Assembly (NCBI GenBank): GCA_938021675.1
Contig: CALIFY010000014.1
Coordinates: forward strand, 34,726-98,725
DNA: 64,000 nt
Origin: an uncultured Acidimicrobiales bacterium
GTDB lineage: Bacteria; Actinomycetota; Acidimicrobiia; Acidimicrobiales; SZUA-35
Direction of reading: 5' to 3'
The translations under genes were made by a program, and so were the position numbers. This document shows, one piece after another, positions 4,885 to 45,384 of this stretch. How positions within the stretch are numbered: position 1 is the first letter of the stretch; each line of letters begins with the position of its first letter. The notes beneath the pieces were generated by a model, which searched no databases, was not told the DNA's origin, and worked only from the letters and a program-made list of their open reading frames with translations.

Positions 4885-6564
4885 GTGGGTCAAGATCCAG
4901 CAACCATCACGCCGAACACGAACACGAACACGAACACGACTCGATCTTCGGAGCCGGAGAACGGATCGTTGCCGGTTCATGCCGCCATCGACCTTGGAAC
5001 GAATTCGTTTCACCTGGTGGTCGCCCGTGGACTCGCCGATGGCGGGTTTGAGGTCATCACAACAGAGAAGGAGATGGTGCGTCTTGGTCAGGGGAGCGGC
5101 GAAATGCGGTTGCTTACCGATGCGGCCATGGACCGAGGTGTCGACGCGCTCCGTCGCATGGCCGCCGTCGCTGCCACCCACGAAGCGGAAATCACCGCCG
5201 TCGGCACTAGCGCCATCCGAGAGGCCAACAACCAACGGGTGTTCATAGATCGAGTTCGTAGCGAGACGGGAATCGAGATAGAGGTTATCTCGGGCTTCGA
5301 AGAGGCCCGGTTGATTCACCTCGGGGTGCTGCAAGCACTCCCGGTCTATGAGACGCCACTGTTGCTGGTCGACATCGGGGGCGGAAGCACAGAATTTCTC
5401 ATCGGTCGCGGGTCGACGGTGTTGATGGCTCGCAGCCTCAAACTCGGAGCGATCCGGCTGACCGACGGGTTCTTCGGCGACGGCAAGATCACAAACAAAG
5501 CGGTTCGGGGATGCCGGGCCCACGTCAAAAACGTGTTGGCTGCCGCCTGCCGTGATTTCGAGCCGTTGACGCGAGAAGTCGCCATCGGGAGTTCGGGAAC
5601 CATCACCGCTATGGCCTCGATGATCGCCGCCCAACGGGGAGAGGAATGTCGCGATATGAACGGGGTGTCGTTCACCGCCGATGAACTCGGTGATGCGGTG
5701 GAACGGCTGATTGGCTCGACCTCGCAGGATCGTCGGGGAATCGATGGCCTCGACGCAAAACGGGCCGACATCATCGTGGGTGGCTCCATCCTCCTCGAAG
5801 GAATCTTTCGAGTCTTTGACCTCGACGCGATCACCGTGTCGGGATACGCGCTCCGCGAAGGGGTCTTGTTCGACCGGTTGGCCGCCCGTGGCACGTCATC
5901 TTTTCTCTCCACCGTCGATCGGTTGACCGACCTCCGGCGGGCAAACGTCCGCCGGTTGGCCCGCCAACTCGACCCCGATGCCGAACACGCCGAGACCGCG
6001 GCCCGCCTCGCCCTTCGACTTTTCGACCAAACACGCGAACTCCACGGTCTAGACCAGCAGGCCCGAGAACTGCTGGAGATGGCGGCAATCGTCCACAACG
6101 TCGGACTCTTTATTTCCCACTCCGCTCACCACAAACACACCTACTACATCGTTCGACATTCCGAGCAGCTCACTGGATTCACCGAACACGAGCGTGAGTT
6201 GTTGGCTTTGGTGGCGCGATATCACCGGAAAGGGATCCCGAGCGACAAACATGAGACCTTCGCCCCGCTGAGAAAGAAAGACAAGCGGTTGGTGCGGATT
6301 CTAGCCGGTCTGTTGCGGGTGGCTATCGGTCTCGACCGGAGCCACCGTGGCCTCGTGGCCGACGTGAGCGTGACGGGAACCGACGACGGGCTTGTGATCA
6401 CTCCGCTTGCGGCCATCGAGCCGGAGTCGGAGTCGGAGTCAATCGCAGGTCCCGACAGCACGACCGATATCGAGCTTGAGATCTATTCCGCCCAGGAACG
6501 TTCGGAGCTATTGGCCGTGGCCCTCGACGTCGATGTCGAGGTCGCTGGCACCGATAATTCGTAG
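4885..6564 (+). CDS. ppx: Ppx/GppA family phosphatase with C-terminal HD domain (exopolyphosphatase-like)
   Basis: AAIDLGTNSFHLVVAR, DIGGGSTEF, and later HNVGLFISHSAHHKHTYYIV (HD region). The start is uncertain. An in-frame TTG just before LPVHAAIDLG would place the microsatellite outside the CDS. Confidence 0.8.
   Translation: MGQDPATITPNTNTNTNTTRSSEPENGSLPVHAAIDLGTNSFHLVVARGLADGGFEVITTEKEMVRLGQGSGEMRLLTDAAMDRGVDALRRMAAVAATHEAEITAVGTSAIREANNQRVFIDRVRSETGIEIEVISGFEEARLIHLGVLQALPVYETPLLLVDIGGGSTEFLIGRGSTVLMARSLKLGAIRLTDGFFGDGKITNKAVRGCRAHVKNVLAAACRDFEPLTREVAIGSSGTITAMASMIAAQRGEECRDMNGVSFTADELGDAVERLIGSTSQDRRGIDGLDAKRADIIVGGSILLEGIFRVFDLDAITVSGYALREGVLFDRLAARGTSSFLSTVDRLTDLRRANVRRLARQLDPDAEHAETAARLALRLFDQTRELHGLDQQARELLEMAAIVHNVGLFISHSAHHKHTYYIVRHSEQLTGFTEHERELLALVARYHRKGIPSDKHETFAPLRKKDKRLVRILAGLLRVAIGLDRSHRGLVADVSVTGTDDGLVITPLAAIEPESESESIAGPDSTTDIELEIYSAQERSELLAVALDVDVEVAGTDNS
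4914..4937. repeat. Hexanucleotide microsatellite (GAACAC)x4
   Basis: gaacacgaacacgaacacgaacac, read directly. It sits 37-60 bp upstream of the prmA start and inside the 5' end of the longest ppx ORF, where it would encode NTNTNTNT. Confidence 0.95.
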
Positions 6565-6596
6565 CTGGCGGCGTGCCCTTTGGCGCTACCGAGGAC

Positions 6597-7250
6597 CTAC
6601 AGGCCAAAGCGTTCGAACGGAAAGTCGATCAAGGTGTCGAGCACCGCATCGGCCGCCGAGAAATCACTGGCCGCGGTCACCCGGTTCGGCACGACAACGC
6701 AGGCCATGCCGGCGGCCTTCGCCGCCGCTACCCCGTTGTAGGAGTCTTCGATGACCACGCAGGCCGACGGGTCGACCCCGAGGCGTTCGGCGGCCACGAG
6801 GAACACGTCGGGCCATGGTTTGGCGTTCGTGACGTCGTCTCGGGTGGCGAGAACCGAAAAGCGATCGATGATGTCTCGTTCGGTCAGATGCCGCTCGACC
6901 CATCGAAGCGGGGAGCTGGATGCCACCGCTACCGCTCGTCCGCGGCGGTCGGCACCGTCGAGCACGTCGAGAACGCCGAGGCGGAGGTCGGTGCCGGCAA
7001 TCATGTCGGTGTGGGCCCGCCGCCGCCTGGCCCGAATCTCCTCAATGTCATCCCTGGGCCCCAGCTCGTCCTGAAGTTCGTCGCTCCAGTGCCGGTGGTC
7101 AGCCCGACCGACCTTCAACCGAAAGTCATCCAGTTTGTAGTCGAGACCATGCCGCCGGAACTCTTGGCGGACGGTGACAAACTCACTCCATTCAGTGTCG
7201 ATAATGGTGCCGTCAAAATCGAAGATGATGGCCGTCGAGCGGTCGTTCAT
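6597..7250 (-). CDS. HAD-IA family hydrolase (beta-phosphoglucomutase-like)
   Basis: The DxDG motif IIFDFDGTIIDTE is followed by later HAD motifs (VAVASSS, VVIEDSYNGVAAAKAAGM). The start overlaps the upstream stop as ATGA. Confidence 0.8.
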   Translation of the reverse strand: MNDRSTAIIFDFDGTIIDTEWSEFVTVRQEFRRHGLDYKLDDFRLKVGRADHRHWSDELQDELGPRDDIEEIRARRRRAHTDMIAGTDLRLGVLDVLDGADRRGRAVAVASSSPLRWVERHLTERDIIDRFSVLATRDDVTNAKPWPDVFLVAAERLGVDPSACVVIEDSYNGVAAAKAAGMACVVVPNRVTAASDFSAADAVLDTLIDFPFERFGL

Positions 7251-30199: not shown

Positions 30200-31684
30200 C
30201 TAGTCGAGTAAACCGGTAACGACGAACTCTGCTCGGCGGCTCTCCGACGCGGTGCGTTCGTCGTCGCCGACCGTTGCGCCTTCTTCGCCCCGGGCGTCGA
30301 TATCGACCTGGCTGCGGTCGACACCCTGCAGAAGCCAATAGTTGATAACCGCCTGGCCCCGTTGCTCGGCAACCTTGCGATTCACCTCTTCGCTGCCAAC
30401 GGCATCGGTTCGACTGATGATAGAGATCGTTGCCTGCGGATTCTGACGCAGCAGTACTGCCCCAAGATCAAGGATCGGGAGGAAGGCTGGATCGACCTCC
30501 ACACTGTTGAAGGGGAACAGCACCACGTCGTCTACGTAGACCGGGGCGCTCTCGCCGGGGTTGATAACCGCTGCCGGGTCGACCGTGTACCCATTGACAA
30601 CGTTTTCAGGGCCGACGACGGCCGCCGCCTTTTGCTCGATCTGTTCGCCGACCTCCTCGCTTGGAACCGCACCGCTGAGGTAGACCTTGCCGCTGCGAAG
30701 CACGGCCTGTCTGCCGGAGTCATTATCGATGCTGTCCTCGGAGGCACCGGTGGCCGCCCGTTCTGAAGCGGCGGTCTCGGTGTTGGCGCCGTCGTCTGTT
30801 GCGTCGTCGGTTCTGTCGACCCCGCCACCGGTCCGAGCATCGGCGGAGGCCTCGGTCGCCCCGCCGACTGCTGCATCGTCGTCAGAGTCGGGCTCACCAT
30901 CGGTGGGCAGGGTGGGTGCTGTCTCGTTGGCCTTCACCGAACCTTCTGCGTCGCCGGTGGTGTCTTCCGCTGCCGGTGGGTCCGCCACTTCTCCGGCGTT
31001 GCTGGCTTGGACCGCTTCAGCGGCCGAACCGGTGATCGTTTCGGTGTCCGTTGACCCGTCCGACTGGGTAAACAGATATCCGAGGGTTCCCATGCCGACG
31101 ACGACCAGCACGCCTAGCAGTGCCAACCCGACGACCTTGGCCGAGCGCCGCTTCGATCGTGTACTCTCGCCGTCGATCGAATCGGATGCCCCGGACCTGC
31201 CGATGAGGTTGGCCGACGGGTTTTTAGGATCAACGCGGCGCTCTATCTCTTCCGACGGCATCTTTTCCGGTTGTCCTGAGGTCGCTGGCCCAGGTGAAGC
31301 CGTGCTCCTCGGCAAGGTATTCGGCAAGGTATTCGGCGGGATTGTCGCCGTCGAACCTTCGGCGTTCGTCTTCTTTTCGGTCGACGCCGCTACGGGACCG
31401 GTGACCGCCGCGTTATCGCTCGGATCGATGTCTGTTTCGGTGTGATCATGGGCGCCCCGGCGGCGCTCGAGCTGACGGCGACGCCGCGGCGAACTCGACG
31501 GTCCCTCACCGGTCTTTGCCCCTAGGCCAGGATGAATCGGTCGGCTCGGTTCCTGCTCTCTGAGCTGGTTGTTGGTCTCGGGTTCGGTTTCCTGCCCTTT
31601 GGCCGGAACCTCGTTGGCCGCGGTGTCGGCCGTTCGATTCGCCCAGCTCGGCAGCTCGTCAAAATCACTCATCTCGGCCACCAC
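30200..31684 (-). CDS. OmpA-family (OmpA_C-like) envelope protein with disordered acidic N-region and one TM
   Basis: TM helix VVGLALLGVLVVVGMGTLGYLF. C-terminal OmpA-like region FPFNSVEVDPAFLPILDLGAVLL...ISRTDAVGSEEVNRKVAEQRGQAV...RRAEFVV. Confidence 0.75.
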   Translation of the reverse strand: MVAEMSDFDELPSWANRTADTAANEVPAKGQETEPETNNQLREQEPSRPIHPGLGAKTGEGPSSSPRRRRQLERRRGAHDHTETDIDPSDNAAVTGPVAASTEKKTNAEGSTATIPPNTLPNTLPRSTASPGPATSGQPEKMPSEEIERRVDPKNPSANLIGRSGASDSIDGESTRSKRRSAKVVGLALLGVLVVVGMGTLGYLFTQSDGSTDTETITGSAAEAVQASNAGEVADPPAAEDTTGDAEGSVKANETAPTLPTDGEPDSDDDAAVGGATEASADARTGGGVDRTDDATDDGANTETAASERAATGASEDSIDNDSGRQAVLRSGKVYLSGAVPSEEVGEQIEQKAAAVVGPENVVNGYTVDPAAVINPGESAPVYVDDVVLFPFNSVEVDPAFLPILDLGAVLLRQNPQATISIISRTDAVGSEEVNRKVAEQRGQAVINYWLLQGVDRSQVDIDARGEEGATVGDDERTASESRRAEFVVTGLLD

Positions 31685-34539: not shown

Positions 34540-34857
34540 ATGCGGCCATTGGGCATCAGAATTTGGTTAGTGGCGGTGGCGGGAAGTCTGCTGCTGGCCG
34601 CCTGCGGGGTCGATGAGCCAACCGACTTCACCGCCGACAACCGCAGCGGTTTTATGGCCGCCTGCACCCGCTCGCTCGATGACACCCAACTGGTGACCGA
34701 CGTGTGCCGGTGCGTGTTCGCCGCGACCTCCGACGAGCTTTCGTTTGTCGAGTTTTCGTCCATCGACCGTCAGCTTCAAGAGAACCCCGAACAGGAGCTC
34801 CCGGAAGAAGTTCTCGACGTCATCGCCGAATGTGTCATCGAGGTTGGCGAGCTCTGA
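34540..34857 (+). CDS. Small lipoprotein, unknown function
   Basis: MRPLGIRIWLVAVAGSLLLAAC lipobox. The start was moved to ATG 34540. Confidence 0.5.
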   Translation: MRPLGIRIWLVAVAGSLLLAACGVDEPTDFTADNRSGFMAACTRSLDDTQLVTDVCRCVFAATSDELSFVEFSSIDRQLQENPEQELPEEVLDVIAECVIEVGEL

Positions 34858-34897
34858 ACAGGCGGTGGTTGGAGGTGGTGGAGTAGCCTCGGTGGCG

Positions 34898-36076
34898 ATG
34901 ACCGACGCCACTTCCGCTTCACCCGGCGAGACGACCGTTCCCCAAAAACCCCGTTGGACGTTCCAGTGGAAAGAGCTGTACGACGAGGTCATCACGTCCG
35001 GGTTGTGCACCGGCTGCGCGGGGTGCGTGATCGCCTGCCCGCACGACGTGATCGGCTACGAACACAAACCGGGGGCGTATACCCCATTTCACTTGGAAGA
35101 AGAGTTGGGGCTGGCCAACTGTGTGCACGGTGAAAAGGGCTGCACCTCGTGCACCAGGGCGTGCCCCCGTTTCCGGTCTTGGGAGACCGAAGCCGATGAA
35201 CACCTCTTCGGACGGGTGAGAGAGCCGAGCGAAAAGTCGGGCATCTACAAAGACATCCTCCTCGTGCGGGCAACCGACGATCGGATTTACGAGAATGGCC
35301 AGGACGGTGGGTTGGTGTCGGCCATCCTGATTTGGTGCCTTGAGAACGACATCATCGATGGTGCGTTGGTGTCGATGTTGGAAGGGGGTGCCGGCGGCTG
35401 GAAAGCGATCCCCGGGGTGGCTACCAATATCGAAGAAGTTATGGCATCGGCCGGTAGCCGGTATACCTACTCGGCCAACACCATGGCGTTCGACGAGGCC
35501 CGAGACCGGGGCTTGGACAAACTGGCGCTCGTCGGGATGAGCTGCCAAACATCGATTGGCCCGGTGATGTGGCACCGAAAGGTGGGGAAGGTCTCGAAAC
35601 CCATCAAACTCAACATCGGGTTGTTGTGCTCAAAGTCGTTCGATGACTCGATGTTCGACGAACTTTTCTATTACAAATATGGGCTGGCCAAAGACGACAT
35701 CGTAAAGATGAATATCAAGGGGGTGTTCCAGGTATGGATGCGAAACGGCGACTACCACGAGATCAACCTTAAGGAATGCCACGCTTGGACACGAGAAGGG
35801 TGCAATCATTGCCCCGACTTTGCTGCTGAACATGCCGACATTTCCACCGGGGGCATCGGAAACGAGACGGACTGGACGTTGACTGTGGTTCGAACTGACC
35901 TGGGTCGGGCCGTCATCGATGCCATGATCACCGACGGCGTGGTCGAGACCCGACCCGGTGACGATGATCCGGCGGCTATAGCGCTCATGCACCGCCTGGC
36001 CGAGAAGAGCAGGCAGCGATGGCCGGCGTGGGCAAACGGCGAAGCGCGGGTTGGTCTGTCGCCGAAGAAGGCGTAG
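34898..36076 (+). CDS. FrhB/FdhB-family (coenzyme F420 hydrogenase/dehydrogenase beta subunit-like) Fe-S flavoprotein
   Basis: N-terminal ferredoxin-like CTGCAGCVIACP. The C-terminal region has CNHCPDFAAEHADISTGG, typical of the FrhB C-terminal domain. The start was moved to ATG 34898. Confidence 0.65.
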   Translation: MTDATSASPGETTVPQKPRWTFQWKELYDEVITSGLCTGCAGCVIACPHDVIGYEHKPGAYTPFHLEEELGLANCVHGEKGCTSCTRACPRFRSWETEADEHLFGRVREPSEKSGIYKDILLVRATDDRIYENGQDGGLVSAILIWCLENDIIDGALVSMLEGGAGGWKAIPGVATNIEEVMASAGSRYTYSANTMAFDEARDRGLDKLALVGMSCQTSIGPVMWHRKVGKVSKPIKLNIGLLCSKSFDDSMFDELFYYKYGLAKDDIVKMNIKGVFQVWMRNGDYHEINLKECHAWTREGCNHCPDFAAEHADISTGGIGNETDWTLTVVRTDLGRAVIDAMITDGVVETRPGDDDPAAIALMHRLAEKSRQRWPAWANGEARVGLSPKKA

Positions 36077-36102: not shown

Positions 36103-36759
36103 TTAGCCCTCGGCCGGCTGGCCGACGATCGCCGTGATCTCGGCAACGTCGCCGTTTTGGATGGCGTTTCCTGCTCGGCCTTTTGCCTCGAATTCTGAGG
36201 CATTCCACTCTTCGGCGAGGGCGAGGAGTTGTTCGTAGTTGTAGCCGGCGTCCCAGTATGCAGCGTAGGCGTCGAGGTCATCCTCGTTCCAGCCGTCGGG
36301 AGTCGCCGTCGGGGGTTGGCCGACGATCGCCGTGATCTCTGCCATGTCGCCGTTTTGGATGGCGTTTCCTGCGCGGCCTTTTGCTTCGAATTGTGAGGTG
36401 TTCCATTCTTCGGCGAGGGCGAGGAGTTGTTCGTGGTTGTAGCCGGCGTCCAGGTATGCGGCGTAGGCGTCGAGGTCATCCTCGTTCCAGCCGCTCATCG
36501 GGTCGATACTCGTTGGGGTCGAGGATCCGGTACCGGAGTCCTCGTTGACGGTCGGTGGTTCGTTAGGAGCGGCTGGCTCGGTTGTTATCGTCGGCTCAGA
36601 CGCCAGGGTGACGCCGGCAAAGCCAACACCGACCACGGTCACCGCGGCAACGGCGCCGTAGGTCAGACGTTGCCGGCTCCGGCGACGTCTGGCATCGATG
36701 TCATAGATCTCTTCGAGGCTTGGCGGCGGTAGTTCGGTGTTGTCGGCAGGTCGTATCAT
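36103..36759 (-). CDS. Membrane-anchored protein with 2 x ~60-aa novel repeat module; putative anti-sigma/sensor partner of the adjacent ECF sigma
   Basis: The ATG overlaps the sigma stop (ATGA). The cytoplasmic tail is about 30 aa. One TM helix (LTYGAVAAVTVVGVGFAGVTLA), a Pro/Thr linker, then two copies of GWNEDDLDAYAAY.DAGYN.EQLLALAEEWN.S.FEAKGRAGNAIQNGD.AEITAIVGQP. No classical anti-sigma domain was recognised. Confidence 0.65.
   Translation of the reverse strand: MIRPADNTELPPPSLEEIYDIDARRRRSRQRLTYGAVAAVTVVGVGFAGVTLASEPTITTEPAAPNEPPTVNEDSGTGSSTPTSIDPMSGWNEDDLDAYAAYLDAGYNHEQLLALAEEWNTSQFEAKGRAGNAIQNGDMAEITAIVGQPPTATPDGWNEDDLDAYAAYWDAGYNYEQLLALAEEWNASEFEAKGRAGNAIQNGDVAEITAIVGQPAEG
36115..36492 (-). 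repeat. Two tandem ~180-bp coding repeats (period 198 bp), paralogous to 38357..38782
   Basis: Copies at 36115..36294 and 36313..36492. There are long identical DNA runs with the second locus, for example the 36-mer gaggagttgttcgtagttgtagccggcgtcccagta at 36223..36258 and at 38474..38509. Confidence 0.9.
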
Positions 36760-37280
36760 CGCTGCTCTTCCTCTTCGGCCGTAAGTGCATCTCGTAGTCG
36801 TCGTCTTGCGTTGCTTAGCGTGGCCGAAGCTGAGCCGGCGCTGGTGTTCATCTGCGCCGCCACCTCGGCCTCCGACAGTTCGTCCCAGTAACGCAGTTGT
36901 ACGGCGGTCCGCATCCGATCTGGAAGATCGTTGACCAATTCGACAACCGAATCGAGCCCGTGGCCTTGGATGGCGATGTCTGGCTCATCGATCTTCGTTG
37001 GCAAGCGGCCTTGTTCGATCTTGGCGATAGCCCGTTTCTCGATTTGTCTTCGTCGCCACGCTCGTCGGGAGAGATTGATAGCGGTACGAAAAACCCAGCC
37101 CTCGGGCGACTCCATCCGACCAACACGGCGCCACTTGGCATACGCCCGGGCAAAGGCCTCGGCCGCGAGCTCGCGACCGAGTACCGGGTCGCCGACCTGC
37201 TGGGCGATGCGCCTTGATAGTGGCTCGGCAACATCGGCGTACCAGCTCTCGAATGAGAGTTCGCCATCCGAAGGGGTCAT
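36756..37280 (-). CDS. ECF (sigma-70 family group 4) sigma factor
   Basis: Region 2 (ELAAEAFARAYAKWRRV...GWVFRTAINLSRRAWRRR) and region 4 (DLPDRMRTAVQLRYWDELSEAEVAAQMNTSAGSASATLSNARRRLRDAL). 174 aa. Confidence 0.85.
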   Translation of the reverse strand: MTPSDGELSFESWYADVAEPLSRRIAQQVGDPVLGRELAAEAFARAYAKWRRVGRMESPEGWVFRTAINLSRRAWRRRQIEKRAIAKIEQGRLPTKIDEPDIAIQGHGLDSVVELVNDLPDRMRTAVQLRYWDELSEAEVAAQMNTSAGSASATLSNARRRLRDALTAEEEEQR

Positions 37281-37294
37281 CGGTTCGAGATGAT

Positions 37295-38326
37295 TTACGG
37301 TAGAGCTCGTTTGAGTTCCTCCAAGCCGGCAAGGATCTGTCCAGGGTTGTCGGCGCCGGGCAGGATCCGGATCTCGACGGTGTCCTTAGTTCGAGCGCCC
37401 TTCCTGAGGTTGACGAGGTTCAGATCGCAATACTTGGTCAGCGGAATGGTGCGCAGCCACATCAGCACCTCAGGCCAGGACCGATCGGTGAAACCCGGTT
37501 GACGGACACCATCGACCAACTCTGGGGGTAACGGCGATAACCGACGGCAAGCCTGGTTAGTGCCGAGCGTAGACCACAGCGCATCACGTTCAGAGAATAA
37601 CTCGATCAATCGGGCCAGAGCCGGCGCGGTTCGAAACGGCTCCGCGTCGAGATGGATATGAACCGCAGCCTCGGCTGGGATCGTGAATCCAAGATCTCTG
37701 GCCGGGCCGAGCAAGGCTTCGAGTGCGTCCTCGAAGCTGCCGGTCAGCGGCGGGGTGACGATCTCGCAGACCCGCTCTCGTTCGCCACCTTGGGGAGCAA
37801 TCATTGCGATGGTGTCGCCACCTCGATCGTCGAGGCGGAATCGGTTCCCGTCAAGAGCTTCCACCGCCGAGCCGAACGCAGCCGCCATTGGTCCTAGCAT
37901 CGACTCGGCGGATGCGGTCGGGTCACAGATTTGTTGTGCCAACCGAAGGAGGCGGGGTTCATCACTCAGGATCCGAAACCACCCCGGCTCCGGCATTTTG
38001 TGGATGTCGAGATCGGTGTTGATCGTGACGTCATCGACGAGCCGACAACGCATCGCACCGTTGGCCTCGTCAACTTCAAACCCACGGGTGAGGTGATGAA
38101 AAACTGGACGGCCTTCCACCAACGATGGTTCGGCATCGTGGTGGAAGACCGTCCTGATCGACCCTCCACACTGTTCGGCGAACTCTTCGGCCAGCGTGTG
38201 CCGGCTGGCACCGGACGGTGCGAGAAGTTCGACCTCGAACCCCAGCCGGTCCCAATGGCCGGTACGGGCTGGGTGGTCCGACCATGTGACGGTGTCGGAC
38301 TGGCGTGGAGTGTCAGATGTTGCCAT
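37295..38326 (-). CDS. Amidoligase_2-type (glutamine-synthetase-like COOH-NH2 ligase fold) enzyme, substrate unknown
   Basis: Ordered motifs match the putative-amidoligase family as I recall it: LGFEVELLAP (GxExE strand), VCEIVTPPLTG, AAVHIHLDA, KYCDLNLVNL, TVEIRILPGADN. No signal peptide or TM helix. Confidence 0.6.
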   Translation of the reverse strand: MATSDTPRQSDTVTWSDHPARTGHWDRLGFEVELLAPSGASRHTLAEEFAEQCGGSIRTVFHHDAEPSLVEGRPVFHHLTRGFEVDEANGAMRCRLVDDVTINTDLDIHKMPEPGWFRILSDEPRLLRLAQQICDPTASAESMLGPMAAAFGSAVEALDGNRFRLDDRGGDTIAMIAPQGGERERVCEIVTPPLTGSFEDALEALLGPARDLGFTIPAEAAVHIHLDAEPFRTAPALARLIELFSERDALWSTLGTNQACRRLSPLPPELVDGVRQPGFTDRSWPEVLMWLRTIPLTKYCDLNLVNLRKGARTKDTVEIRILPGADNPGQILAGLEELKRALP

Positions 38327-38344: not shown

Positions 38345-38923
38345 TCAGCCGTTGGCCGGTTGGCCGACGATTGCGGTGATTTCGGTGATTTCTGTGGTGT
38401 CGCCGTCTTGGATGGCGTTTCCTGCTCGGCCTTTTGCTTCGAATTCTGAGGTGTTCCATTCTTCGGCGAGGGTGAGGAGTTGTTCGTAGTTGTAGCCGGC
38501 GTCCCAGTACGCGGTGTATGCGTCGAGGTCGTCTTCGTTCCAGCCGTCGGGGGTGTCGGGTGGTGGGGGTTGGTCCGGTCCTGCTGGTTGGCCGACGATT
38601 GCGGTGATTGCGTTGATTTCTGTGGTGTTGCCGTCTTGGATGGCGATGCCCGCTCGAGCCTTCGCCTCGAAGTTCGACGTGTTCCATTCGATGGCAAGAG
38701 CCTCAAGCTGTTCGAAGCTATAGCCGGCCATCCAAAAGGCCGCGTAGGCATCGAGCGTGGCCTGATCGATATCCATGCCCTCCACGTTGATGAGAGGGGC
38801 CGGGTTCTTGGCGGTTGGCGTGTCGTCGGGAGTTTGGGCCAGTGCCAGACCGGAAACCGCACCGGCGACGGGAAAGGCCAGTGCTGAGGCAGCGGCGAAC
38901 TTCAGCTTTTTGGAATTGAGCAT
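38345..38923 (-). CDS. Secreted protein with 2 x the same ~60-aa novel repeat module
   Basis: Sec-type signal MLNSKKLKFAAASALAFPVAGAVSGLALA|QTPDD (start set at ATG 38923, SD gaagga). It carries two modules homologous to those of 36103..36759. Confidence 0.7.
   Translation of the reverse strand: MLNSKKLKFAAASALAFPVAGAVSGLALAQTPDDTPTAKNPAPLINVEGMDIDQATLDAYAAFWMAGYSFEQLEALAIEWNTSNFEAKARAGIAIQDGNTTEINAITAIVGQPAGPDQPPPPDTPDGWNEDDLDAYTAYWDAGYNYEQLLTLAEEWNTSEFEAKGRAGNAIQDGDTTEITEITAIVGQPANG
38357..38782 (-). repeat. Two tandem coding repeats paralogous to 36115..36492
   Basis: Copies at 38357..38545 (close to the 36-kb copies) and 38585..38782 (more diverged). There is a 9-bp EIT duplication in copy 2. 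Confidence 0.9.
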
Positions 38924-39012
38924 TGGCAGCGGTCCTTCTGTAGGGAACACCTAAAGAAGCCTCAGATGCATCGGTTCCCTTAGCCGCGGCCGGATTATTC
39001 TGATGGTTGTCG

Positions 39013-40341
39013 CTACTCGTTGGCCGTGGCGACGATCGGGGAGGTGGCGGCGGTAATGACCGAGCCGGTCTCCGAGGCGAACGCGGTGGTGACGCCGATC
39101 GGGGTGCCATCTACTCGTTCACCGAGATGGTTCGTTACCTGGCAGGTGCCATCGTCGTTGATAACCAGAACGGTTCCGCAGTAGTCGGGCATGTCCTCAA
39201 CCGATTCTCCAAGCACGATGAGGCCCATCTCGTTGTTCTGAACCGATTCGTGGGAGAAGCCGGCTCGCTCGAAGTGCAAGAGGCCGTCGGCCAGAGCGAC
39301 GCAGTACCCGGTGCTGTCCGTCGGGAACAGCGACGGCGGAAGTACCGATGTCCACTTCCAATCCTCGACGAGGTTCTTTGATGTGACGATGGAGAATTCG
39401 AGATCGCCGAGCACCGAGAGAGCTGCGAGAGATAGCACCGCCGAGCGAGCGGTAGCCAACGCTGCCGAACGGCTGCCGACAATTCCGAGCGGACCATACA
39501 GCAAGTTGGCGGTCACCGGAACCCAGGGCAAGAAGCTCATGTTCTCGATCGGTTCGTACAGCTCTTCTGGTATCTGCTCAGGCTCGTCGAACCGGGGCTC
39601 CCAGGGAATGGTGCAGTAGGCGACAGCGAAACGGCCGAACAACGGGTGGTCGACGCCCCGTTCCCACAAGCCTGGTTCGAGTCGGCCGAGCCTGGTCCGT
39701 AGTTCCTCGGGATTGGGGTGGAGTAGGCGGTGGCGGTCGGCGGTGGCGTTTCTGGTCTGACGGATCGATTGGAGAAACGCCCAGGCCTGGGCGTTCAATT
39801 CTAGGTCGCTTGTTTCGCTGGTCTGCCGGGAGAACAATGAGCTGAGGAACGAGTCGCGGCCGGACCCGGTCGTCTGTTGGTCTTCGATGAAACTCGGGAC
39901 TTCGATCGCCGGTGTCGGTTGACGGGCCGCTTCGATGGTGGCGACGATCGAAGCGGCTGTGGCCGGTGGGCGGGGAGGGCGCACGGTGAAGCAGGCGCTC
40001 CCGACGTGGAGCACAGACTCACCGATCGGCATGGCTTCGGTCACCGGCGCTTGATCGACGAGTGCGTCGACCGAACCAGGAACCACCATGACGGTGTCAA
40101 CGTCTTGGACCGCCAACGAAAATCCAATGTCCCGGTCGGACTCGCGGAATTGGAACAACCCGGAGTGAAGTGGCATGACGGTTCCAGATGTCAACCCTGC
40201 AACCTGCCGCATCTCGAGCAGCACGTCGGCAGGGGCGCCATCGGTGGTCGCCGCATCGTCGCCGTTTTGAAACGGCGGTGCAGTCGGGTCGAGAGAGAAG
40301 TCATCCATCTCGGGATTGGGTGCGATTGCTGGATCGTTCAT
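39013..40341 (-). CDS. Hypothetical protein: FHA-like beta-rich N-region plus degenerate FtsK/SpoIIIE-like domain (Walker A lysine absent)
   Basis: Start moved to ATG 40341 (MNDPAIAPN...). YGPLGIVGSRSAALATARSAVLSLAA...LEFSIVTSKN...VLPP lines up with the FtsK-family pattern PH.LvAGtTGSGKS...L..l...l.liDpK...lPH, but it lacks the GKS/T. No TM helix was seen. This is pattern recognition only. Confidence 0.4.
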   Translation of the reverse strand: MNDPAIAPNPEMDDFSLDPTAPPFQNGDDAATTDGAPADVLLEMRQVAGLTSGTVMPLHSGLFQFRESDRDIGFSLAVQDVDTVMVVPGSVDALVDQAPVTEAMPIGESVLHVGSACFTVRPPRPPATAASIVATIEAARQPTPAIEVPSFIEDQQTTGSGRDSFLSSLFSRQTSETSDLELNAQAWAFLQSIRQTRNATADRHRLLHPNPEELRTRLGRLEPGLWERGVDHPLFGRFAVAYCTIPWEPRFDEPEQIPEELYEPIENMSFLPWVPVTANLLYGPLGIVGSRSAALATARSAVLSLAALSVLGDLEFSIVTSKNLVEDWKWTSVLPPSLFPTDSTGYCVALADGLLHFERAGFSHESVQNNEMGLIVLGESVEDMPDYCGTVLVINDDGTCQVTNHLGERVDGTPIGVTTAFASETGSVITAATSPIVATANE

Positions 40342-40995
40342 CCAACGGACAATTCTACGCGGTTCTCGAAGCTGATCCTGACCCAGGAGGAACAAGGAGG
40401 GTCGTCGGGGGTGCGCATGGTGTCTAGTCGACCACGAATCGAAACCGGACGGTAATCCTACGGTTGGTGATGACCCGTTCCAGGTGTCGACCCGAGGGGG
40501 TCTATGGCCGGCTTGTCGCCAAGATCGAAGCCCTTCTCGGTCGTGTCGCGTCATACCTAAGTTCGCCATCGGTTGGCAGCCGGCGCCCCGTCTCGCCGGG
40601 CCCGGAAAGCTGCAGCCCCGGCTCATGGCCACGATCTCGAGGGAACCGATCGTGCAGTTAGGGAGGGATGACTCCTGGCAAGGTTTGATGTTTGAGGCCA
40701 ACCGGTGGTGGGAATACTTCATTAGTACGTTCCTGCGAGTCGCCGGTCACGGTAGATGACGGCCACTGCTTGAGTGGTAAGTGCGAGTCGCTAGCGAAAA
40801 ACGAGAACCTGGTAGTTGGAGCCTCAAAGTGACTCTGGCCGTGGATAACGGGCTTCCATCGCAACAGCCGGTTGAACCGTGAAGGCCAACCCAAAAGACC
40901 CGGCCCGTCGGTTTTTGGTACTGGCTCTGTCGAGAAACTCTGGCTGTTGCCCAGATGCTGCCAAGAGCCGAGACGACCCCGAGCAGGAAGTGTAG

Positions 40996-42651
40996 ATGTC
41001 GAGCCCCAAAAGTCTTATAGCGCCGGACGTTGATACGGCTGACCAGATGCAAGCCGTACCTGCCCCATCGTCAACGGAAACCTCCACTGGTGATGATACG
41101 TCGGGCGACGAAGTGAACGGTGGTAGCGGTCTTCTGGCCCAGGCCTATTCGCGCCGGATACTTGGGCCCGTTGTGCTTTCAATGGCGGTACTGATGTATG
41201 TGATCTTCTTTTCGAGGAGGTCTATTGCCACCCACGACTCGCTGTCCGCCGGCGCCTATGATATGGGCATCTTTGACCAGGGAATCTGGCTGCTCTCTCG
41301 GTTTCAGTCTCCGTTTTCAACGATTATCGGCCGCCAACTCTTCGGCGATCACGCCTCGTTCAGTTTGGCTTTTCTAGCGCCGGGGTATTGGCTCTTCCCC
41401 GGGTCGGAGTTTTTGCTCGTCGCTCAGACCGTTGGATTGGCGTCAGCGGTGGTCCCGCTGTATCTCACCGCTCGTCGAGAATTGGGTGACTCTCTGGCAT
41501 CGGTGGCAATACCGATCGCCTACCTACTTCACCCTTCGGTCAACGGGGCCAATATGGAGAACTTCCACCCTGATTCTTTTCTCGCACCGATGATCGCAAT
41601 GGCTATCTACGCCGCGAAACAGGAACGGTGGCGGATTTTTGTCGTCTCGGTAGTGCTCGCCCTCTTGACCAAAGAAGATACTGCGTTCGTGATCGCCCCG
41701 CTCGGAGCCTGGGTGTTCGCCACCAAAGACCGCAGAATTGGTCTACTGACGGTCTTCGGATCGTTGGCCTACATGGCGATTGCTCTTCTTGTCTTTATGC
41801 CGGCGTTCGGTGTTCCCCCGGACCGCAACGCGTGGAGGCTGCCGTTCGGCGGCATCGGCGGAATAGTGCGGACCAGCTTCACTGAACCGACGGTCATGGT
41901 CCAGCACCTGTTGTCGGGGCAGCGGCCTAGCTATCTCCTGCAGATGTCGCTACCGTTCGGCTGGCTGTTCAAGTCGCCTCTGGCTTTGGCCAGCTCGATC
42001 GTCGTGTTGATCAACTTGGTGAGCGTCTTCAGGTTTCAACACGAGATTTCACGACACTACAGTATTGCTGCCATTCCCGCCCTCGCCTTCGCAGCCATCG
42101 AAACCATACGGCGTCTGGAGGGGCGCGTTAAGCGGCTTCTCGCCACGGGGTTTCTGCTCGCCCTTTCGATGTACAGCTCATATTTCTGGGCCCAGACGCC
42201 CTGGAACCCAGACTACTCCCACGACTGGGAAGAGTTGACCTCGGCCCCTCGGGTACTGGCGGCCCGCGACGTCGTGAATCGTGTGCCAGACGACGCTGCG
42301 ATCTCCGGGAACGCATCCATTGTCTCGTTCCTCGCTCACCGACCCGAGGTCTACGTCTTTCCGAACCCTTTCCTAGGTCAGGCGTACGGAGACGACGCCT
42401 TCATATCCGGACCGGGGGACCCTGACCGAGCGGACAGGATCGACTACATCCTGATCGAGCGAGACCAGGACTACCCTTACACCCATCCAGATGGCACGGT
42501 GATGTACGGCCGAGAGGAAATTCTGCCATCTTTCGAACTTATCTACGAAGACGAGTTCTGGGAGCTTTACCTCAGGAATCCATCGGTGCCCGTGCCCCAA
42601 CTAGATCGAATTCCCTTTGAACAACGCTACGTCGATGACTGGATCGGCTAA
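40996..42651 (+). CDS. DUF2079 family integral membrane protein (GT-C-like)
   Basis: Multi-TM protein with the characteristic AYDMGIFDQGIWLLSRF...GDHASFSLAFLAP region. Confidence 0.7.
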   Translation: MSSPKSLIAPDVDTADQMQAVPAPSSTETSTGDDTSGDEVNGGSGLLAQAYSRRILGPVVLSMAVLMYVIFFSRRSIATHDSLSAGAYDMGIFDQGIWLLSRFQSPFSTIIGRQLFGDHASFSLAFLAPGYWLFPGSEFLLVAQTVGLASAVVPLYLTARRELGDSLASVAIPIAYLLHPSVNGANMENFHPDSFLAPMIAMAIYAAKQERWRIFVVSVVLALLTKEDTAFVIAPLGAWVFATKDRRIGLLTVFGSLAYMAIALLVFMPAFGVPPDRNAWRLPFGGIGGIVRTSFTEPTVMVQHLLSGQRPSYLLQMSLPFGWLFKSPLALASSIVVLINLVSVFRFQHEISRHYSIAAIPALAFAAIETIRRLEGRVKRLLATGFLLALSMYSSYFWAQTPWNPDYSHDWEELTSAPRVLAARDVVNRVPDDAAISGNASIVSFLAHRPEVYVFPNPFLGQAYGDDAFISGPGDPDRADRIDYILIERDQDYPYTHPDGTVMYGREEILPSFELIYEDEFWELYLRNPSVPVPQLDRIPFEQRYVDDWIG

Positions 42652-44103: not shown

Positions 44104-45384
44104 ATGACCGCCGCAACACCTCATGGAGTCCCGATACCTGAACCGGCACCGAACGTTCCCCTCGGGCCCCGAGAGGAAGAGCCGAGACGGTCCGTCCGGT
44201 GGGTTCGGCGCCCGGCGGCGATCGCCTTTCTCGTGGCGATCGCCATCGTGGTGATCCTGCTGTCTCTTGTGGCGTGGGGCCTCAAACGCTTCGGCGATAT
44301 TCCAACCGTCGGTGTCGCCGGGTTAGATCCGGTGCCATCGGAGGGAGCGTCGAACTGGCTGTTGGTCGGTACCGACGATCGCACCGGGATCGATCCGTCA
44401 GAACCAGACGCCGGGTACTTCCTCGGTGAGCCGTTGGAGGGGCGACGAACCGACACCATCGTGCTGGCCCGGATCGATCCCGAAGCCGGAACGATCGATC
44501 TGTTGTCAATTCCCCGGGATCTATGGGTACCGATCGCCGGTAGCGGGCAATCGGGCCGAATCAACGGGGCATTCAACGTCGCTTCGCCCGGCGGCGACGG
44601 CGGGTTGTCGGCCAGTAACGGCGGATCGCGGCTGGTGGCCACCATCGAATCGGCCCTCGACGTACCGATCCATCACTACGTCGAGGTGAACTTCGTTGGG
44701 TTTCGCCAGCTTGTCGACACCCTCGGCGGCGTTCCGATGGAGTTCGAGTATCCGGCCCGCGATGCCGGTTCGGGACTGGACGTCGGGACGTCGGGATGCA
44801 AGATACTCGACGGGAATACCGCGCTGGCTTTGGCGCGGAGTCGGAATTTCGAATGGTTCGACGGGGCCGGGTGGCAATCCGACCCGACCGGTGACGTTGG
44901 TCGGACCGCTCGGCAACGGGAGCTGTTGGCCAAGTTGGCCGGTGAAACCGGTCGACGGATTGGTCTGAGCAACCCACTCCTCGCTGACAACATGGCGGTG
45001 GCGGCGTCGAACGCCATCACGCTTGACGAACGAACAAGTGTCTTCCAGCTGTTCGACGCGGCCCGAACAGCCCGGTCGGGGATCGACCAGATCGAGGGGT
45101 ACGCCCTTCCGGTCGTCGATCATCAGACCGAAAGTGGGGCGCAGGTTCTCCTGTTGAGCGAGACGGCGGCCATCCCGGTGCTCGGTGCCTTCCGGAGCCA
45201 GGACCGAGAGCCCATTCCCTTTGACGCCCCGCCGACCTTGCCCGAACGAGAGGCAGGCGATGCCGCACCGCCCGGCCCGGAACCGGCTGGACCGAAAGCT
45301 GAAAACGACGAGGCCGACGATAGGGAAGAACGGGCAGCATCGGGCGAGGGGAACGACCGCTCCAACGAGCTTGAGTCGTGCTAG
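44104..45384 (+). CDS. LCP (LytR-CpsA-Psr) family cell-wall glycopolymer ligase
   Basis: N-terminal TM helix, then NWLLVGTDDRTG...RTDTIVLARIDPEAGTIDLLSIPRDLWVPI...INGAF. Confidence 0.85.
   Translation: MTAATPHGVPIPEPAPNVPLGPREEEPRRSVRWVRRPAAIAFLVAIAIVVILLSLVAWGLKRFGDIPTVGVAGLDPVPSEGASNWLLVGTDDRTGIDPSEPDAGYFLGEPLEGRRTDTIVLARIDPEAGTIDLLSIPRDLWVPIAGSGQSGRINGAFNVASPGGDGGLSASNGGSRLVATIESALDVPIHHYVEVNFVGFRQLVDTLGGVPMEFEYPARDAGSGLDVGTSGCKILDGNTALALARSRNFEWFDGAGWQSDPTGDVGRTARQRELLAKLAGETGRRIGLSNPLLADNMAVAASNAITLDERTSVFQLFDAARTARSGIDQIEGYALPVVDHQTESGAQVLLLSETAAIPVLGAFRSQDREPIPFDAPPTLPEREAGDAAPPGPEPAGPKAENDEADDREERAASGEGNDRSNELESC

Follow-up and report, generated by a model that had tools for sequence, protein, structure and literature searches.

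The 64,000-nucleotide stretch of contig CALIFY010000014.1 from an uncultured Acidimicrobiales bacterium (hereafter the window) carries on its minus strand a four-gene cassette, in which an enzyme of the Amidoligase_2 family is encoded together with a secreted repeat protein (R), an extracytoplasmic function (ECF) sigma factor, and a membrane repeat protein (R-TM). A previously undescribed four-helix module forms the exported part of both repeat proteins and is the obligate partner of the enzyme, rather than of the sigma factor as such. The features of the cassette are as follows (HMM, hidden Markov model).

38951..38980, minus strand: candidate ECF-type promoter of the cassette, AGGGAAC-N14-CTTC, 28 nt upstream of the ATG at 38923
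38345..38950, minus strand: secreted repeat protein R, with a Sec signal peptide cleaved after ALA; probable ATG at 38923
about 38579-38770 and 38348-38557, minus strand: the two R modules, four-helix units of ~60 aa (from alignments and the module HMM)
37295..38326, minus strand: amidoligase (A), 343 aa, ATG start, stop codon included; Amidoligase_2-family carboxylate-amine ligase, cytoplasmic
36756..37280, minus strand: ECF (group IV) sigma factor, 174 aa, with matches to Sigma70_r2, Sigma70_r4_2, and Sigma70_ECF
36103..36759, minus strand: membrane repeat protein R-TM, putative anti-sigma/sensor, 218 aa (from the translation and module hits)
about 36304-36501 and 36106-36303, minus strand: the two R-TM modules (module HMM hits)

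The junction sequences place the stop codon of R 18 nt ahead of the amidoligase start, the sigma factor gene begins 14 nt past the amidoligase stop, and the start of R-TM overlaps the sigma stop by 4 nt.

A first-pass annotation made from the sequence had described the amidoligase as an ORF (open reading frame) with five ordered motifs and had placed it in the Amidoligase_2 family, with a likeness to glutamine synthetase (GS) and GCS2. All five motifs were present in the claimed order in the 343-aa translation, namely, LGFEVELLAP (residues 28-37), VCEIVTPPLTG (186-196), AAVHIHLDA (220-228), KYCDLNLVNL (298-307), and TVEIRILPGADN (316-327). Pfam PF12224 (Amidoligase_2) matched residues 27-326 at E = 5.1e-13, its 49.9 bits lying above the gathering score of 22, and was the sole family reported in a Pfam scan at E≤10, in which the Pup_ligase (PafA/Dop) profile gave no match; an NCBIfam scan returned no model. 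The AlphaFold2 model of the enzyme had a predicted local distance difference test score (pLDDT) of 91.3 and a predicted template-modeling score of 0.88. When this model was searched with Foldseek against the predicted viral structures in BFVD, 27 matches at E≤1e-3 were obtained, mostly named amidoligase; the top match, from Arthrobacter phage Salgado, had an E-value of 3.2e-8 and a template-modeling score of 0.45, the targets being predicted and not solved structures. Sequence identity to the matched phage enzymes was just 11-20%. The assignment to the Amidoligase_2 family, which profile and fold both bear out, is solid.

For the broader likeness to GS and GCS2, direct superposition gave weak results. 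Foldseek against the PDB returned nothing at E≤1e-3; human glutamine synthetase was the only enzymatically coherent match there, and a weak one (probability 0.51, template-modeling score 0.30). Sequence and profile searches of the PDB with the amidoligase were empty, and hhalign against 14 GCS2 (PF04107) sequences from related genomes produced a weak, local match (E = 0.0023, probability 12.6%) in which the TVE.R strand alone was aligned. The link of the enzyme to the GS/GCS2 superfamily therefore rests mainly on the published description of the family.

In an alignment of 27 amidoligase homologues with 46-62% identity, the following residues were invariant: E31 and E33 (GFE.EL); R183, R185, and E188 (ERER.CE); E219, H223, H225, and D227 (EAAVH.H.D); N257, C260, and R262; K298, D301, and N303; and E318 and R320 (TVE.R.LPG). 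The residues checked as putative metal and ATP ligands (E31, E33, E188, H223, H225, D227, E318, and R320), whose loss would have spoken against the family assignment, are all among them. The resulting ExE / E / HxH / ExR pattern resembles what we take to be the GS-type signature for metal, ATP, and acyl phosphate, a mapping that the superposition did not confirm. The protein has no signal peptide, its residues 1-20 are predicted to be disordered, and its gene is present in one copy in the source genome (4.4 Mb). Family membership and the conserved catalytic residues predict an active, cytoplasmic, ATP-dependent carboxylate-amine ligase.

The secreted protein R consists of a signal peptide, a Pro/Thr linker, and two modules, as read from its translation, and has no match in Pfam or NCBIfam. 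The sigma factor matched TIGR02937 with 56.6 bits (cut-off 42.9), while the nearest subfamily model, TIGR02983, stayed below its cut-off; as is typical of the ECF group, it has sigma-2 and sigma-4 domains only, within a length of ~170-200 aa. R-TM starts with a short Arg-rich cytoplasmic N-terminal segment (PPSLEEIYDIDARRRRSRQR), followed by one transmembrane helix, a linker, and two external modules. Neither a Pfam match nor a recognizable anti-sigma domain of the zf-HC2 or RskA type was found in R-TM, and its NCBIfam matches were all sub-threshold. Three features suggest its putative anti-sigma role: its gene overlaps that of the sigma factor by 4 nt, its single transmembrane helix gives it an N-in topology, and its short N-terminus is conserved. 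The N-terminal motif PPSL[ED]EI..I..RRR is common to the acidimicrobial equivalents, but conservation of this segment does not extend from one order to another. In nucleotide sequence, module 2 of R is near-identical to both modules of R-TM, 2.2 kb away, and the first module of R is clearly more diverged. This pattern suggests that sequence recently passed between the two genes by duplication or gene conversion.

The module was found by aligning the unannotated proteins of six gene-called homologous loci. It spans ~60 aa with the consensus A[FY][FW]xAGYx[YW][DE][DE]AxxLAx[LI]W-x5-9-[AV]Kxx[AG]Gxx[LI]LxG, and AlphaFold2 models it as four short helices (pLDDT 88). Searches of Pfam and NCBIfam with the module gave no match, and Foldseek with its model found nothing significant in the PDB. 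When 1.84 billion representative proteins were searched with a profile of the module, 812 module proteins (clusters) were recovered; the best 150 of these 812 are 113-642 aa long and contain 2-9 modules each. No additional domain scored above the cut-off in the 10 module proteins tested. Among 245 modules from 81 loci, one Trp and one Lys were each present in 245 of 245, the Lys never being replaced by Arg; one Gly was conserved in 99%, one Leu in 98%, and the two residues of the GY pair in 95% and 91%. Within a genome the module occurs only in one or two proteins of the cassette. A role as a general wall anchor was rejected because the module was never fused to other domains.

Homologues of the amidoligase with 48-63% identity occur in Acidimicrobiia, Micromonosporaceae (Actinoplanes and Krasilnikovia), Kineosporiaceae, Promicromonosporaceae, Cellulomonadaceae, Microbacteriaceae, and Pseudonocardia. 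HMMs were built for the module, the sigma factor, and the enzyme, and 84 non-redundant homologous loci were scanned with the following outcome.

56 of 84 loci: sigma factor, membrane repeat protein, amidoligase
13 of 84 loci: secreted repeat protein, amidoligase, sigma factor, membrane repeat protein (the order in the window)
3 of 84 loci: the order in the window, the final repeat protein not being detectable
1 of 84 loci: mixed order
7 of 84 loci: repeat protein and amidoligase, no sigma factor
4 of 84 loci: amidoligase alone

A module-bearing gene stands directly upstream of the amidoligase gene in 80 of the 84 loci, and an ECF sigma gene belongs to the cassette in 73. At the seven loci where the junction of the module gene and the amidoligase gene was checked (six gene-called loci and the window), the two were separated by at most 18 nt or overlapped by 4 nt. 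No further gene was conserved in the cassette over 34 taxonomically diverse loci; in particular, there was no transporter, second enzyme, GATase-like protein, or AIG2-like protein. The enzyme-module pair also occurs without the sigma factor, as in Kineosporia and Egibacteraceae, and two loci (L019 and L024) have no sigma gene within 6 kb. Enzyme and module are the core of the system, and the sigma factor is a frequent but not obligatory third member. A divergently transcribed enzyme-module pair with no sigma gene nearby was seen at L064 (positions 5001-7074), in a metagenome-assembled genome (MAG) labeled Maricaulis (Alphaproteobacteria), which, if the label holds, extends the pair beyond Actinomycetota. 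The module variant there contains Cys, and the scan had counted this locus among the four with the amidoligase alone.

Enzyme and module are inherited together. In ~590 sampled genomes, both were present in 13, both were absent from 579, and one was never found alone. The genome of the window and 40 relatives contributed seven of these carriers: the same 7 of 41 genomes hold the enzyme and the module, always adjacent, and the other 34 hold neither. All seven belong to one genus, in which they represent 7 of 25 species, a patchy distribution, and two of them (G424 and G430) have two copies of the enzyme each. The patchiness and the doubled enzyme copies within a genus indicate frequent gain, loss, or duplication. 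Among 151 Micromonosporaceae genomes, the same six hold both and 145 neither, and 400 further genomes spread over the phylum contained no enzyme and no module. The raw probability of such an overlap by chance is <1e-7 per sample, a value to be read with the qualification that related genomes are not independent. The module without the enzyme was never found in the relative, phylum, or Micromonosporaceae samples. Enzymes without the module came solely from one long-branched sister clade, represented by three Acidimicrobiales MAGs (L020, L021/L103, and L085), where the module is absent genome-wide and the sigma gene is gone as well. In this clade the amidoligase gene closes a csoR-copZ-copA operon for copper efflux and adjoins a convergent Ser/Thr kinase-WD40 gene; the linkage to csoR-copZ-copA may hint at a role in metal stress.

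Upstream of the cassette, motifs were found that look like ECF-type −35/−10 pairs and that precede the first cassette gene, whichever gene that is. The acidimicrobial arrangement, TAAGGRAAY-N14-17-C(G/T)TC, lies upstream of the first cassette gene in the window and at four other loci (L002, L006, L007, and L039). A genome-wide search for AAGGGAAY-N13-17-CKTC gave 5 matches versus 4 for a control pattern, so the motif is not enriched and no regulon can be derived from it. At loci of the Actinoplanes type, a different motif, [TC][GC]CACA-N15-18-[CG]GT[CT], stops 5-9 nt short of the sigma start. It was present in 47 of 77 upstream regions, compared with 0.4 expected from shuffled sequences, and the Promicromonospora and Cellulomonas loci have the same motif ahead of the gene for the secreted repeat protein. 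The placement of these motifs fits autoregulation of the whole operon, which is probably autoregulated. A scan for consensus sigma-70 promoters and terminators inside the cassette showed nothing beyond chance. In Actinoplanes and relatives (L004 and L015-L087), TGCACA-N16-CGTC was observed ~5-9 nt upstream of a conserved GTG start of the sigma gene (GTGACCTTCGAG); because the motif is so close to this start, the sigma mRNA at these loci is probably leaderless.

Amidoligase_2 systems are reportedly encoded beside a GAT-like thiol peptidase or an AIG2-type cyclotransferase, and the first-pass annotation had noted that both were missing here and that an ECF sigma factor and secreted repeat proteins took their place. 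Indeed, no GAT-like or AIG2-like protein was detected when 16 flanking ORFs, covering 30.2-45.4 kb of the window, were examined. The neighbors were as described, one repeat protein having a Sec signal peptide and the other a single transmembrane helix. The unusual context is thus genuine, and several orders of actinobacteria have kept it. The ORF upstream of the cassette (39013..40722, minus strand; 569 aa as listed, with a true start that is probably later) was rejected as a member because it is not conserved at other loci; it has no Pfam match and weakly resembles the N-terminal region of type VII secretion ATPases of the EccCa/EssC kind (E ~4e-9, far below the cut-off). Two envelope genes, for a DUF2079/PMT_2-like membrane protein (40996-42651, plus strand) and a LytR-CpsA-Psr protein (44104-45384, plus strand), were likewise rejected as conserved partners, as they are not conserved with the cassette elsewhere. 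Two other genes flank the cassette at its far side. One (34745-36076, plus strand) encodes a stand-alone FrhB/FdhB-family Fe-S flavoprotein, similar to the beta subunit of F420 hydrogenase/dehydrogenase, with no partner subunits nearby, and the other (30200-31684, minus strand) is an envelope gene for an OmpA/BON-domain protein with a long low-complexity region, which is not conserved with the cassette elsewhere.

Given a cytoplasmic enzyme and an exported module, the ligase must either work on the module while this is still inside the cell, or make a product that reaches the outside, where it is bound. We tentatively prefer the former, in which the ligase attaches a carboxylate to the invariant lysine of the module before export. 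The four-gene operon (R, amidoligase, ECF sigma factor, and R-TM) would be transcribed from the ECF-type promoter, with the amidoligase as its catalytic member. The ligase would activate a small carboxylate, for example, of the glutamate type, as an acyl phosphate, and the acyl group would then move to the epsilon-amine of the invariant lysine in each module. This transfer would take place in the cytoplasm, ahead of Sec export of the repeat proteins, and the modified modules would serve the anti-sigma protein and its secreted paralogue as an extracytoplasmic surface for sensing. A more specific version, possible although we are inclined to doubt it, makes the enzyme a dedicated protein-lysine ligase that places an acyl or aminoacyl group (e.g., of the gamma-glutamyl type) on every module lysine before export, with the anti-sigma protein sensing envelope conditions through the attached group. 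If true, this would be an extracytoplasmic counterpart of lipoyl and biotinyl domains or of pupylation. Precedents for such chemistry are known. The actinobacterial ligase PafA, which has a GS fold, couples the carboxylate of a glutamate to lysines of proteins; in small tandem domains set between Ala/Pro linkers, an invariant Lys is amidated by lipoate or biotin protein ligases; and cytoplasmic enzymes modify adhesin repeats before Sec export (Aah/AIDA-I and HMW1C/HMW1).

We favor lysine modification because the module is confined to dedicated proteins, because the module gene stands immediately upstream of the ligase gene, because the sole absolutely invariant polar residue is an amine and never arginine, and because the pair comes without a transporter or a second enzyme. 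Small dedicated module proteins are how a substrate or dedicated partner, and not a general wall anchor, would be expected to look, and an epsilon-amine is the kind of nucleophile that such a ligase uses. Several points weigh against this reading, the main problem being topology. The enzyme has no export signal, and the modules either leave the cytoplasm by means of a Sec signal peptide or are placed on the C-terminal side of a signal-anchor helix. Modification would therefore have to precede translocation, which is awkward for the membrane-anchored protein. The invariant Lys could equally be explained as a ligand-binding residue. In addition, a sister clade keeps the enzyme while its genomes lack the module altogether. 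The enzyme can therefore use a substrate other than the module, with the reservation that this clade sits on a long branch.

An arrangement with the enzyme inside and the modules outside is fitted better by the synthesis of a ligand and its recognition by a cognate binding or sensing module, according to the logic of SLH domains and CsaB. This explanation is the main rival, and we rate it only slightly below lysine modification. The ligase would put an amide-linked group on an exported peptidoglycan or wall-glycopolymer precursor or a lipid, or would make a small amide metabolite; the exported module would bind the product non-covalently, and the anti-sigma protein would use the module to monitor it. 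With the ligase driven by the sigma factor, this would make a homeostatic loop. Such a loop would explain the strict co-inheritance of enzyme and module and agrees with an ECF-type promoter at the head of the cassette, and, as the copA-linked clade without the module shows, the enzyme can act on a substrate other than the module. It also echoes a published proposal, given in a passage of PMC10580990 with citation of Iyer et al. 2009, that phage Amidoligase_2/GATase pairs modify the cell wall. Nevertheless, the cassette lacks a transporter or more biosynthetic genes, and the module, unlike true wall-binding modules, is never joined to enzymes or other proteins nor found elsewhere in the genome. 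That Lys is never replaced by Arg in the 245 modules is unusual for simple carboxylate binding, and the tight order of an upstream module gene followed by the ligase gene is more typical of enzyme-substrate pairs.

Two further explanations were considered. It is improbable, in our view, that the amidoligase is simply the stress output of a sigma/anti-sigma pair that senses the envelope through the repeat domain, making a protective amide compound or acting in detoxification, with no molecular link to the module and with co-inheritance reflecting shared operon membership only. The frequent sigma gene in the cassette and the ECF-type promoter upstream are consistent with such an output, as is the association of the sister-clade enzyme with another stress operon, csoR-copZ-copA. 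A mere sensor domain would not be expected, however, to remain paired with the enzyme where no sigma gene lies within 6 kb, as at L019 and L024, or in the divergent arrangement at L064, or to be never found without the enzyme in the samples of relatives, phylum, and family. We give very little credence to a cytoplasmic regulatory modification, in which the ligase would modify the sigma factor or the cytoplasmic N-terminal segment of R-TM and thereby tune sigma release. All three proteins are accessible in the cytoplasm and co-translated, and the acidimicrobial membrane proteins share the conserved N-terminal motif; yet the loci without the sigma factor and membrane protein keep the secreted repeat protein and the ligase, and the N-terminal segment varies between orders while the module is conserved. 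Neither of these last two explanations accounts for the sigma-less pairs.

To our knowledge, no substrate has been identified for any Amidoligase_2 member, and none was identified in the literature we found. No literature linking amidoligases with ECF sigma factors was found. Co-mention of amidoligase and anti-sigma amounted to citation of the 2009 family paper, and the main text of the ECF reclassification paper does not mention amidoligase; mentions of "amidoligase" that referred to ATP-grasp or GNAT enzymes were set aside as not relevant. A known but uncharacterized enzyme family, a standard sigma/anti-sigma scaffold, and a new partner domain together make up an undescribed conserved system, and the cassette points to an enzyme with a dedicated partner in the actinobacterial cell envelope, a pairing so far unstudied. 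It offers a clean handle, with one enzyme, one strictly co-inherited domain, a single invariant lysine, and a built-in reporter in the ECF sigma factor and its promoter, and its culturable hosts include Actinoplanes, Promicromonospora, Cellulomonas, and Kineosporia. Lysine modification, if true, would be a new protein modification carried outside the cell, and a module-bound ligand would add to the envelope a new molecule that has its own sensor. In both cases the Amidoligase_2 family would gain a first function, and a new anti-sigma sensor domain would be defined.

The phage and proteobacterial Amidoligase_2 cassettes (phiEco32 and the LUZ24/UFV-P2 type) combine the amidoligase with a class-II GATase-like protein, with or without an ATP-grasp, COOH-NH2_lig, or AIG2/GGCT protein; ORF21-28 of phage UFV-P2 is a described example (PMC3890496). 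They share with the window the enzyme family, by HMM and predicted-structure fold, and the acidic/His/Arg signature, and the enzymes are biochemically uncharacterized in both. By contrast, the cassette in the window has no GATase-like, AIG2-like, ATP-grasp, or second ligase protein, its partners being an ECF sigma factor and an exported module. On the regulatory side, the cassette resembles ECF/anti-sigma envelope-stress systems with an accessory extracytoplasmic protein, such as sigmaE-RseA-RseB of E. coli and the Firmicute sigmaV-RsiV, whose operon contains wall-modifying enzymes. In both, the sigma gene overlaps that of a membrane protein which crosses the membrane once and has an external domain, the promoter is of the autoregulation type, the sensor domain has a secreted paralogue or partner, and the operon includes an enzyme gene. 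The cassette differs from these systems in that it has no recognized anti-sigma domain and its sensor domain is new, and its enzyme is a cytoplasmic amidoligase that is inherited with the module even where the sigma factor is missing.

Two further systems work in a similar way only. PafA with Pup, and LplA or BirA with lipoyl or biotinyl domains, likewise pair an ATP-dependent ligase with a small domain bearing an invariant lysine, often in tandem and with Pro/Ala-rich linkers. No sequence relationship to them was detected (Pfam, E≤10), and the acceptor proposed here is exported and its modification hypothetical. For the module as a receptor of a ligand, the counterpart is the SLH domain with the pyruvyl transferase CsaB, in which a cytoplasmic enzyme modifies a wall polymer and a co-distributed exported helical repeat binds the modified polymer. 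SLH domains are found on many proteins per genome, whereas the module of the cassette is limited to one or two.

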